From: a virus
Taxonomy: Duplodnaviria > Heunggongvirae > Uroviricota > Caudoviricetes
DNA length: 13,756 nt
Virus record (IMG/VR): IMGVR_UViG_2874945390_000001
Location: 1 to 13,756 of that record
Direction: 5' to 3' (one strand)
The number at the start of each line of letters is the position of its first letter. Position 1 is the first letter of the stretch. The notes beneath the pieces are model-generated. The model saw only the letters and a list, made by a program, of their open reading frames with translations. It was not told the origin of the DNA and did not search any database. A program made the translations under genes and the position numbers. This document shows positions 9,858 to 11,241 of the stretch, in pieces.

Positions 9858-10069
9858 AACCCCCCATTTTCACAATCAGCAACAAGAATATTTTTAGCGT
9901 CATTCAGCGACCGCGTTGCGATGTATCGGATACATTCCAGGGCGAACAATGTGTATTCTTCCCGTTCTTCCTTTCGTGCAAGCTCTGCTGTGCATTCAAT
10001 ATCAATAAGCGCGTGCATCAGCGTAGTGAGTGCGGCGGCGGCTGCGTCCGGTGTGGTTTTATTGTGCAT
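9833..10069 (-). CDS. Hypothetical small acidic protein (78 aa); weak similarity to the adjacent 77-aa ORF
   Basis: Best start is the ATG at 10067-10069 with AGGGGGA upstream, not the TTG at 10099. Its 3' end overlaps the 77-aa ORF start by 25 nt in another frame. Confidence 0.5.
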   Translation of the reverse strand: MHNKTTPDAAAAALTTLMHALIDIECTAELARKEEREEYTLFALECIRYIATRSLNDAKNILVADCENGGLCVIFILK

Positions 10070-10232
10070 AGGTTTCCCCCTGGCGAATACGGGCGACAAA
10101 AATCAGATGTGCGTGCGGCAGCTGCGCGCGGGCTTCGCGTTCAGTGGCTGCGGTAACGGTGAATATTGCAATGCTGTCTGTCAGGCACTGCATAAAGCGC
10201 CAGACAAAGTAAGGGCGTGCGGATACAGCCAT
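10059..10232 (-). CDS. Small protein paralog A (57 aa); possibly an Icd-like/Ash-like phage regulatory protein (tentative)
   Basis: ATG at 10230-10232 with strong RBS AGGAG at 8 nt. Sequence MAVSARPYFVWRF...VTAATEREARAQL...IFVARIRQG. The family name is from memory of a similar motif pattern and is unverified. Confidence 0.5.
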   Translation of the reverse strand: MAVSARPYFVWRFMQCLTDSIAIFTVTAATEREARAQLPHAHLIFVARIRQGETYAQ

Positions 10233-10441
10233 GTGAAAGGCTCCTTTGCTTGATGTAAGGAGTCTCGCCAGCACGCTGTCAAACATGGTGGCGGGACGTA
10301 ACAGGGTTGACAGACTGGCAGCAAAGAAACCAGCGAGCGCAAAGGCTCCCCCGTTACGCCCCGCCATAATGCGGGTATGGGTAGGTTTACGGACACAAAA
10401 AAACCGCATATCGGAATGTAAGCGGCTGTCCGCTTTGCTAT

Positions 10442-10708
10442 TCAGGCTGTCAAACCCGGTCGCCATGTGGGCGACGGGGGAAGAATACAGCCCCACGGTA
10501 ATTTTTTGCAAGTTGTTTTTACGCATGGCCAACCCCCCTGACGAATACGGGCCGCGAATACAGCAACACAACCGGACGGGCAATGGTTACGCGCTTTGCG
10601 TTCAGTCCAGGCGGTGACGTGGATGATTTGGGACTCTGACGCACCAAAGGCGATAAAGCGCCAGAGAAAGGCGGTTTGAGAATGTACAAGGGTAGGGGTA
10701 GTAGCCAT
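10442..10708 (-). CDS. Small protein paralog B (88 aa) of the 10059..10232 ORF
   Basis: ATG at 10706-10708 with strong RBS AGGAGG at 8 nt. MATTPTLVHSQTAFLWRF...VTAWTERKARNH...VFAARIRQGG aligns with paralog A; the alignment gap is a multiple of 3, as expected under coding constraint. Confidence 0.5.
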   Translation of the reverse strand: MATTPTLVHSQTAFLWRFIAFGASESQIIHVTAWTERKARNHCPSGCVAVFAARIRQGGWPCVKTTCKKLPWGCILPPSPTWRPGLTA

Positions 10709-10873
10709 GTCGGCAGCCTCCTTGATTGATGGAATGTAACCACCGCCGGAGGTCCTAAGCTCGCTGGCGGTGGACTGTACAGGGTTAGGACTACTGGCAA
10801 TCAAGGGAACCAGCCTACCCGAAGGTAGCCCCATACAGCCCACCATTGTATAGGTGTGCGTGTGCGTCGATAC

Positions 10874-10895
10874 AAAAAAAGACGCGTGCGGCGTC
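10874..10895 (-). terminator. Rho-independent terminator upstream of paralog module B
   Basis: Plus strand A7 (10874-10880) then hairpin GACGC-GTGCG-GCGTC (10881-10895); on the minus strand the hairpin is followed by U7. Confidence 0.6.
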
Positions 10896-11241
10896 TGTAT
10901 CGCCTCGATTGTCAGCGGGGTCCTAATCCCGGCACCCGTTTTATAAGGTGCACGCGAATCATAGCCTTGGCTGGCAGTGGCGATCAACTGGTTTTTCATA
11001 CCCGCTTTATTCAGGTTGTGCGAGTCCCGCCCTTGCAGGTGTGTGGTATGATTTAACATAGCTACCTCGATACTGTTGCTATCGTTGGTGGTTAGACGCC
11101 CTGCATGTGTTGCGAGCACTGCGGGGCGTTGCTTAATTTGAGTGACAAAACTCAAACTGTGCGCACATGTCAATACTTAACATCTCATTTTTTTTGCTGT
11201 ATTGTGTGCGCCCATAAAGTCCATTTAAGTGAGGTGCATCA

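Follow-up and report, generated by a model that had tools for sequence, protein, structure and literature searches.

Comparative sequence analysis of two tandem C4-type antisense-RNA modules that may lock the replication operon of a satellite of the phage-inducible chromosomal island type

The DNA analysed here is a stretch of 13,756 nucleotides (positions 1 to 13,756 of the IMG/VR record IMGVR_UViG_2874945390_000001, a virus of the Caudoviricetes), hereafter referred to as the window, which carries on its minus strand two RNA modules related to the immunity regions of the phages P1 and P4. An inspection of the letters alone (the sequence-only reading) had proposed that two diverged copies of one module lay head to tail on that strand between 10,059 and 11,100, and two such copies indeed lie at or near those positions, with a likeness far beyond chance. 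Each module, here named B (upstream) and A (downstream), consists of a putative promoter, a leader with the boxes a1 and b1 and a U7 terminator, a C4 RNA, the boxes a2 and b2, and an Icd-like open reading frame (ORF), in that order. When the whole window was scanned with Rfam, four matches exceeded the gathering score, all within this locus and on the minus strand: isrK (RF01394; 10951-10875, 64 bits against 50), C4-B (RF01695, clan CL00128; 10850-10763, 78.6 bits against 45, E 2e-14), c4-a1b1 (RF03163; 10488-10439, 48.5 bits against 46.7), and C4-A (RF01695, clan CL00128; 10371-10284, 74.8 bits against 45, E 2e-13). Since a laxer scan gave a sub-threshold isrK match on leader A (10475-10397; 35.4 bits, below 50) as well as a weak c4-a1b1 match on leader B, the two leaders are homologous, too. 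The resemblance to the C4-icd-ant region of P1 and the CI RNA of P4, for which the sequence-only reading had named an Rfam scan as the check, thus proved correct for both copies; module A is moreover about 80% identical to P1 c4, and P4 gives the same pattern of Rfam and NCBIfam matches. The single-sequence folds of both C4 RNAs reproduced the three-helix structure of the family, in which a long outer stem surrounds two hairpins, with energies of -42.5 kcal/mol for C4-B (z -3.96 versus shuffles) and -48.9 kcal/mol for C4-A (z -6.09), and the annotation of a1, b1, c4, a2, and b2 in the P1 record served to locate the boxes.

Module B begins, at about 10987, with a putative promoter P_B (TTGATC-18-TATGAT, 10958..10987, minus strand as are all the parts of both modules), which was returned by the promoter scan at 9/12, lies directly upstream of the isrK-like RNA and within a long ORF to be described below, and has as its counterpart in the alignment the TTGACT-18-TATATT that precedes isrK in a Shiga toxin (Stx) phage. 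The isrK-like leader (10875..10951) carries a1 (UUAGGAC, 10926-10920) and b1 (CAAUCGAGG, 10911-10903), and the terminator scan located an intrinsic terminator at 10874..10896, with a 6-bp GC-rich stem followed by U7, which is the U7-tailed hairpin already seen upstream of this module and is present in the minimum-energy fold whether or not a1 and b1 are masked. The antisense RNA itself, C4-B (10763..10850), exposes b' in the loop UUCCCUUGAUUG (10809-10798) and a' as GUCCUAA (10791-10785); to its inner hairpin and outer stem correspond the C(UUCG)G tetraloop hairpin and the 8-bp perfect stem that had been attributed to leader B. The targets downstream (10717..10758) comprise a2 (UUAGGAC, 10758-10752) and b2 (CAAUCAAGG, 10728-10720), the latter overlapping the Shine-Dalgarno sequence AAGGAGG (10723-10717) of the Icd-like ORF B, or icd-B, whose ATG is at 10708. 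The calculated pairing of C4-B with its leader amounted to -14.4 kcal/mol for a' and -13.2 for b', and that with its targets to -12.4 at b2 and -9.3 at a2, as compared to -6.9 and -5.6 to -5.8 kcal/mol, respectively, when the same targets were offered to C4-A.

Module A repeats this layout with other boxes. Its putative promoter P_A (TTGCAA-18-TATTCT, 10482..10511), at 8/12, falls under the cut-off of the scan, coincides in the alignment with the annotated P51b/P1c4 promoter of P1, and has a -35 hexamer that is kept in all the tandem relatives. The c4-a1b1 element (10433..10488) contains a1 (UUGACAG, 10453-10447) and, at its 3' edge, b1 (AGCAAAG, 10439-10433), with which C4-A pairs at -13.5 to -14.6 (a') and -8.7 kcal/mol (b'). 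Two mutually exclusive hairpins are predicted in leader A (10397..10433), either GCGG-ACAG-CCGC at 10433-10422 or a terminator-like CCGC...GCGG plus U7 at 10425-10397; this is the weaker hairpin with U7 that had been noticed upstream of module A, it lies inside the sub-threshold isrK match, and the terminator scan, which picked up the terminator of leader B, returned none for leader A. C4-A (10284..10371) has b' in the loop UUUCUUUGCUG (10329-10319) and a' as CUGUCAA (10313-10307). Its targets (10241..10282) are a2 (UUGACAG, 10282-10276) and b2 (AGCAAAGG, 10250-10243), which box again overlaps a Shine-Dalgarno sequence, AAGGAG (10246-10241), that of icd-A with its ATG at 10232; those targets pair with their own C4 at -11.4 (b2) and -8.4 (a2) and with C4-B at -7.3 and -4.5 kcal/mol. 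In these terms the blocks that the sequence-only reading had found in common between the two copies could be assigned, GCTGGTT...GCCAGT...AACCCTGT to the second C4 hairpin and the a' region, and TTACAT...CAA.GGAG to the region of b2 and the Shine-Dalgarno sequence.

The Icd-like ORF A (10059..10232) encodes 57 amino acids and the Icd-like ORF B (10442..10708) encodes 88, and both belong to the NCBIfam family NF033153, 'host cell division inhibitor Icd-like protein' (53.6 and 56.9 bits, respectively, against 25). A Pfam search of these two small ORFs gave no match; the family was provided by NCBIfam. They had been taken as paralogs, and are: the identity is 47% across 45 amino acids (E 2e-10). 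The 88-residue length of ORF B is as read here, but in the relatives compared (L095, an IMG/VR contig, and seven others) icd-B has 62 amino acids; the difference stems from one extra G, the run being G6 within 10540-10531 in the window versus G5 in L095, which carries the frame to 10442, past a conserved stop/start junction ATGCGTAA (10526-10519). That G could be a genuine mutation or an error in sequencing the homopolymer. In ATGCACAATAA at 10069-10059, the stop of icd-A overlaps the start codon (ATG, 10069) of the ORF that follows.

Both small ORFs are nested, in frame, in longer ones, and module B reaches back to its putative promoter at about 10987. The long ORF B (10442..11059, 205 amino acids; 'eta-like') starts upstream of P_B and spans the isrK-like RNA, the terminator, and C4-B; it matches the Pfam family Phage_ASH (PF10554; 51.1 bits against 26) over amino acids 33-127 and the Icd-like family over 131-174. 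The long ORF A (10059..10526, 155 amino acids) spans a1b1-A, the terminator, and C4-A, and its N-terminal part gave no Phage_ASH or other Pfam match. In the relatives, the ATG of the long ORF A overlaps the stop of icd-B, and the junction ATGNNTAA is found in 8/8 of the other two-module tandems; an in-frame ATG at -294 is present in most A-type satellite modules of the subgroup. More generally, no stop codon interrupts the frame of the satellites for 294-381 nt or more ahead of icd, where an in-frame ATG occurs at a constant distance, and in most P1-like phages the frame closes after 33-42 nt, a contrast that led us to soften our initial candidate explanation of the Phage_ASH ORF as purely spurious. 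The Phage_ASH match and the coding sequences (CDSs) that PGAP names 'ash family' or partial 'Icd-like' sit exactly over isrK and C4 (window 10678-10963, minus strand; satellite L001 9663-9923; L002 7371-7709), so that the Phage_ASH model in part describes RNA-constrained sequence; in the Escherichia coli RefSeq records inspected, no C4 or isrK RNA genes are listed at these loci.

For the comparative analysis we assembled as relatives two E. coli islands, six genome loci obtained via the primase, P1, an Stx phage, P4, and 97 IMG/VR stretches. The last were found by a DNA pattern of the C4 core and are thus biased to C4 copies with the GCTGG/CCAGT hairpin; the primase-based scan of genome contigs yielded the 6 loci, three of them without a C4. 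From ten C4 copies we built a covariance model, and its application to all these relatives gave 116 C4 instances, which fell into 40 distinct a'/b' combinations. In 34 representative modules, or specificity classes, the boxes of the same module were complementary to the C4 segments, b1 and b2 to b' and a1 and a2 to a'; the own b2 was the best partner of b' in 28 of these 34, and b2 always abutted GGAG, 28-44 nt downstream of C4. The columns of a' and b' were the most variable within C4 (1.19 and 1.40 bits versus 0.60 elsewhere). As to the stems, among 42 distinct C4 sequences 97.4% of the cells were paired, with double changes at 13 of 26 pairs, against 36-51% in slid controls, though in an alignment that was fitted to the model and so favours the fold. 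Taken as a whole, the three-site covariation of a'/b' with a1/b1 and a2/b2 constitutes strong comparative evidence that these RNA-RNA contacts are functional.

The same boxes separate the two modules of the window from each other. The own pairings ranged from about -8.4 to -14.4 kcal/mol and the cross pairings from -4.5 to -9.8, and the summed energies of a2 and b2 were about -20 to -22 kcal/mol with the own C4 as against about -12 to -13 with the other. Across the nine loci in which two or three modules adjoin, the own a2+b2 sums averaged -22.7 and the cross sums -12.4 kcal/mol, without overlap. At -13.3 kcal/mol, the b' of C4-B also seemed to pair across with sequence ahead of module A; the probable partner there is the G run at the end of icd-B, not the a1b1 element. 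Because the C4 RNAs differ in a'/b' and match their own boxes only, we consider that the modules would be two independent locks on the operon. Separately, the IMG/VR satellite L054 (1090-1876; primase 51% identical) was observed to have a series of three C4 modules, spaced by 342-357 nt and with three different a'/b' codes, over all of which a single frame appears to be open.

The two modules also differ in their affinities. From isrK to roughly the tenth codon of the ORF, the RNA part of module B has 88.5% identity, over 99% of the query, with Stx-converting lambdoid phages, in which the isrK-C4 cassette precedes a gene for a Rha-family regulator and, in one record, isrK and C4 are annotated; in the Stx phage F039 all six boxes (a1, b1, a', b', a2, b2) are identical to those of module B, and the homology stops at about that tenth codon. 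For the RNA part of module A, an identity of about 80% was found with the c4 regions of P1 and D6; the a box is that of P1, and the b box has changed jointly at b', b1, and b2. The sampled P1-like phages have the a box in common and differ among themselves only in b', which difference we take to be that of the P1/P7 heteroimmunity; on that basis module A should be heteroimmune to the P1-like phages. Judged from these alignments, the tandem is the junction of two lineages of one cassette, an isrK/lambdoid type and a P1 type, and in every tandem that we found the former comes first and the latter second, about 478 nt apart. The term 'duplicated', used in the sequence-only reading, accordingly holds for the presence of two copies and fails for their descent, the copies being of those different lineages, with different target specificities and an identity of 53% across 419 aligned nt, which low identity points to an old pairing of the two lineages instead of a recent duplication.

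Two other origins of the tandem were entertained and rejected: a recent duplication or assembly artefact, in view of that 53% identity and of the recurrence of the B+A order at 8 other loci, and a juxtaposition of two islands, in that both modules lie in one operon between ylcI/ynfO and the DUF4222-primase genes. Pieces of the modules are present in approximately 30% of the complete E. coli genomes (1621/5426), and the same B+A tandem was encountered in 8 other satellites; any given B+A combination is rare (19-23 genomes), a rarity that points to heavy shuffling of the modules. The architectures among primase-linked satellites, in what is a biased sample, were A only in 9, B+A in 8, B only in 5, and B+A+A in 1.

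On the evidence of its gene content, the element that carries the locus is a capsid-forming satellite of the phage-inducible chromosomal island (PICI) type: PHROG and NCBIfam matches place int, alpA, a primase/replication module, and its own capsid genes within about 10-15 kb, and the E. coli relatives lie between chromosomal genes. On the minus strand the window holds an integrase split into two overlapping ORFs (12860-13756 and 12507-12956), which is suggestive of a frameshift and in keeping with decay of the island, an AlpA-like gene (11825-12031), three small ORFs downstream of icd-A (10069-9833, 9857-9624, and 9618-9319, the last with DUF4222), a P4-family primase (7905-6301), a single-stranded DNA-binding protein (SSB; 3354-2944), the major capsid protein (2500-1445), and a head-decoration protein (1445-1098). 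On the plus strand are a divergent YlcI/YnfO gene (11242-11439) and two blocks of transposase genes, one between SSB and primase (3403-6038) and the other, an IS3-type pair, between primase and DUF4222 (7976-9132). The contig L095, 98.6-99.7% identical to the window, lacks both of those blocks and measures 10.4 kb without insertion sequence (IS) elements; there an IS110-like element with a frameshifted transposase (5865-7312) has entered about 20 nt into C4-A, with the loss of the rest of C4-A, of icd-A, and of the next ORF, so that its second lock is destroyed and its first intact.

Upstream of module B, at 11158..11173, lies what we regard as the remnant of a further promoter, consisting of TTGACA (11173-11168) and one TGTGCGCACA palindrome (11167-11158). 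In the relatives L095 and E. coli EH41, whose intact island lies at about 1,786,400-1,788,100 of NZ_CP045213.1, the arrangement is a strong promoter, TTGACA-16-TTTAAT, between two perfect TGTGCGCACA palindromes, and the window, compared with these, is missing the 23 bp between the palindromes that contain the -10 and the second TGTGCGCACA copy; the intact, palindrome-bracketed form looks like a repressor-controlled switch. Several observations on this neighbourhood are added here. A related GGGCGCACAC lies, in relatives, closer to the divergent ylcI/ynfO gene (window 11140-11215, L095 8000-8220, and L001 10000-10215, all on the minus strand). The interval from the upstream promoter to the long ORF B contains a 34-nt imperfect hairpin (ACGCCCCGCAGUG...CAUGCAGGGCGU; window 11075-11135, minus strand; -17.5 kcal/mol, z -2.4), which is invariant in the window, EH41, and L095 while its flanks vary, and which gave no Rfam match. 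A 225-residue ORF (11133-11810, minus strand) without a family match overlaps the YlcI/YnfO gene (11242-11439, plus strand) and, EH41 having only a partial 'hypothetical protein' beside ylcI, is probably not real at full length. Finally, the Morganella relative L007 contains near its integrase (221-288) an int-alpA RNA motif (RF02996, 57.9 bits), for which the window gave no match.

From the foregoing we propose that the locus comprises two complete antisense-RNA immunity modules of the C4/CI type, placed in series at the head of the replication operon of a PICI-type satellite, an interpretation that the comparisons lead us to hold with a probability of roughly 0.8. The operon downstream of the RNA elements comprises the Icd-like ORFs, the three small ORFs, and the primase. 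Beyond the family membership of the parts, the complementarity and covariation of the boxes, the nesting of the frames, and the synteny, all of which we observed, we infer by analogy transcription, processing, repression, Rho-dependent polarity, and override. Each internal promoter would be weak and constitutive, and most transcripts would end at the leader terminators to give short isrK-like RNAs, while those that read through would be cut to yield the C4 RNA of about 88 nt. The mature C4 would pair through a'/b' with a2/b2 and thereby block the ribosome-binding site of its own Icd-like ORF, as in the c4-icd-ant of P1 and the cI-kil/eta of P4, and the transcript, left untranslated, would be terminated ahead of the primase genes. 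Pairing of C4 with a1/b1 on the nascent leader may in addition favour the leader terminator, and the short isrK-like RNAs, which carry a1/b1, could titrate C4, a notion that fits the activation in trans by the Salmonella IsrK of translation downstream of a C4-equivalent (PMC4825925) and the competition or titration of C4 by a1b1 proposed for P1 (supplement of PMC2864571). Escape would take place when the regulated upstream promoter supplies transcripts on which ribosomes traverse the long ORF B, so that terminators and antisense pairing are overridden as by the eta of P4; by stop/start coupling, the ribosomes might then pass from lock B into the long ORF A and beyond, thus escaping both locks.

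Several points weigh against this proposal. P_A matches the consensus at only 8/12, and both promoters are putative. In the A-type leaders the masking of a1/b1 shifts the predicted fold from the GCGG-ACAG-CCGC hairpin to the U-tailed terminator form, but that leader-terminator switch is a thermodynamic prediction restricted to leaders of this type, and so suggestive; with stems of 4-6 bp, we treat it as hypothetical. Since the N-terminal part of the long ORF A has no protein-family match, its proposed translation follows solely from the conserved open frame. The many related satellites with a single module imply that the second lock would not be essential. Furthermore, the copy in the window has decayed, with three IS-type insertions, the split integrase, the frameshift at the end of icd-B, and the 23-bp deletion in the upstream promoter, and for that reason the system may no longer operate here; despite the decay of the element, both RNA modules are intact.

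If, as one alternative, lock B shared its specificity with the isrK-C4-rha cassette of Stx/lambdoid phages in a functional sense, the RNAs of phage and satellite would cross-react, either in the form of eavesdropping, in which a phage isrK-like decoy or the loss of the phage C4 would open the satellite lock at the lytic switch, or in that of interference, which the sequence-only reading had also suggested, in which the satellite C4-B would hold down the Rha-type regulator of the phage. The identity of all six boxes of module B with those of F039, in a surrounding RNA that is 88.5% identical and whose homology ends some 10 codons into the ORF, agrees with such cross-talk, as does a second class (a' UUGUGAGAA, b' UUCCCUUGAUUG) common to the satellites L001 and L089 and to the Rha-type phages L013, L017, and others, along with the action in trans of the Salmonella IsrK cited above. 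The common boxes could, however, equally result from recombination of a portable cassette, given that a change of code requires three sites to change in concert; an Stx-type query of the complete E. coli genomes found 499 places in 470 genomes, from which figures the co-residence of a phage copy with a similar satellite copy would be uncommon; and module A, in our sample, matches no phage in both boxes. We regard helper cross-talk as unlikely, and think it similarly doubtful that the tandem is a two-input RNA gate tuned to phages, in which lock B would use an Stx/lambdoid code, so that a decoy or antisense RNA of a phage would open or close the satellite operon or the satellite C4 would silence the phage regulator, and lock A would add a private satellite code. 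Were such a gate to exist, helpers would be sensed by RNA mimicry, a route undescribed for PICI-type satellites, whose induction is now attributed to AlpA.

A reading of the modules as toxin/antitoxin-like units, with the Icd-like peptides as payload and the C4 RNAs as antidotes, would assign to them the stabilisation of the island or the arrest of the host upon induction instead of the gating of replication. It appeals to the Icd-like nature of both ORFs, as of the old 'cI' CDS of P4 in its C-terminal part, where kil lies; to the membership in that family of relatives of the P1 cell-division inhibitor Icd; and to the portability of modules that each have a putative promoter and an antisense RNA of their own and are spread over about 30% of the complete E. 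coli genomes. Against it, the Icd-like ORFs are always joined to the downstream genes by an overlapping stop/start, which in P1 represents translational coupling to ant according to the annotation of its record, and the Stx phages employ the same RNA cassette on the Rha regulator without any Icd-like ORF, from which it follows that the RNA part needs no peptide. This alternative, under which the peptides would be putative toxins, seems to us improbable as the principal role of the modules, though it and the immunity locks that we favour are not mutually exclusive.

That the locus codes only for two paralogous Ash/Icd proteins, with the RNA-family matches as a by-product of conserved coding sequence, is suggested by the long open frames, by the Phage_ASH match over the region, and by PGAP, which annotates here just 'ash family' and 'Icd-like' CDSs, but we dismiss it as scarcely credible, in that compensatory changes keep the C4 stems paired, that complementarity among three separate boxes across the 34 classes is unpredicted by coding constraint, that most P1-like phages keep the RNA elements without the long ORF, that 1-nt indels within C4 between the A and B lineages alter the frame over part of C4 and leave the fold, and that the P1 C4 and the P4 CI are experimentally established as RNAs (P1 record annotation; PMC4825925).

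The control of Gram-negative PICI-type satellites is currently described by way of AlpA, RNA immunity having been noted in them only in passing (Mageeney et al., 2023; PMC10111431). Under the two-lock interpretation, one satellite family would carry one, two, or three C4-type locks, whose codes are diverse and do not cross-react within an element, as a cassette exchanged with Stx-converting and P1-like phages. These loci would then make up a natural library of non-cross-reacting antisense/target pairs and provide a way to test the talk between satellites and helpers through RNA codes. A further point concerns annotation: at these loci, CDSs labelled by pipelines as 'ash family protein' or as partial 'Icd-like protein' overlie C4 and isrK RNA genes. 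In the literature searched we found no description of tandem modules, of differing specificities, or of boxes common with Stx phages; the consulted portions of PMC10111431 report none of these, nor the stop/start coupling, and in the paper on capsid-forming PICIs the terms 'Icd', 'antisense', 'repress', and 'sRNA' are absent.

Among the known systems, the immunity region of P4 (PLE, seqA, cI/CI RNA, seqC, and the nested kil/eta) shares with the present locus, in the same order, a terminator-bearing leader of the isrK type, a C4-type RNA, and an Icd-like ORF that lies in frame within a longer one, which in P4 and in module B belongs to Phage_ASH; in both instances the module heads a satellite primase operon, module B matching the same Pfam, NCBIfam, and Rfam families. 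In P4 we located isrK at 8692-8615 and C4 at 8507-8420, the old 'cI' CDS (8584-8168) being Phage_ASH plus Icd-like. There, the CI RNA is processed from the leader and pairs with seqA and seqC to cause premature termination, which is overridden by the translation of eta from the upstream late promoter (PMC4825925 and PMC10111431). The two systems differ in that P4 has a single module, whereas here two stand in series with different recognition boxes; in the boxes themselves (P4 a' UAUUCUCAC, b' UAUCCUGUGAAG); and in the element, which is here an island of the PICI type, as opposed to a P4-like satellite, that brings capsid genes of its own and a primase only 39% identical to P4 alpha.

The immI region of P1 and P7 (P51 promoters, a1 b1, c4, a2 b2, icd, ant1/2) is, in P1, about 80% identical to module A from a1b1 through C4 to a2. 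Module A shares with it the a box UUGACAG and the placing of b2 over the ribosome-binding site of an Icd-like ORF, and has a putative promoter where P1 has P51b. In contrast to P1, the b box of module A is AGCAAAG in place of GUUAGUG at all three sites, replication genes instead of ant follow downstream, and a long in-frame ORF spans the RNA elements, most P1-like phages being without one. The isrK-C4-rha cassette of the Stx lambdoid phages is 88.5% identical to module B over isrK, terminator, C4, a2/b2, and the first 10 or so codons; yet in that cassette and in the isrK-orf45/STnc1160-anrP region of Gifsy-1 a Rha or antirepressor gene occupies the place that is here taken by an Icd-like ORF, a second module, and replication genes, and in the satellite a long ORF encloses module B. 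Only for the Salmonella IsrK are binding to Hfq and activation in trans by the short RNA known (PMC4825925). According to the same source, the Gifsy-1 'orf45' is conserved in its nucleotide and variable in its amino-acid sequence and yields a processed RNA of about 80 nt, STnc1160; its authors draw the parallel with the P4 CI but still treat orf45 as an ORF. We observed that orf45 has the position of C4 in the homologous Stx-phage locus, and STnc1160 is probably a C4 RNA.

Lastly, C4 and isrK profiles match several Gram-negative PICIs, for which a role in immunity was suggested (Mageeney et al., 2023), and the C4/isrK 'immunity RNAs' in the Bro zone of Gram-negative and helper-embedded PICIs, as set out in that paper, belong to the same class of element and the same Rfam families as the RNAs described here. 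The C4/CI kind of module is therefore already known; what appears to be new is its tandem, mutually non-cross-reacting layout.

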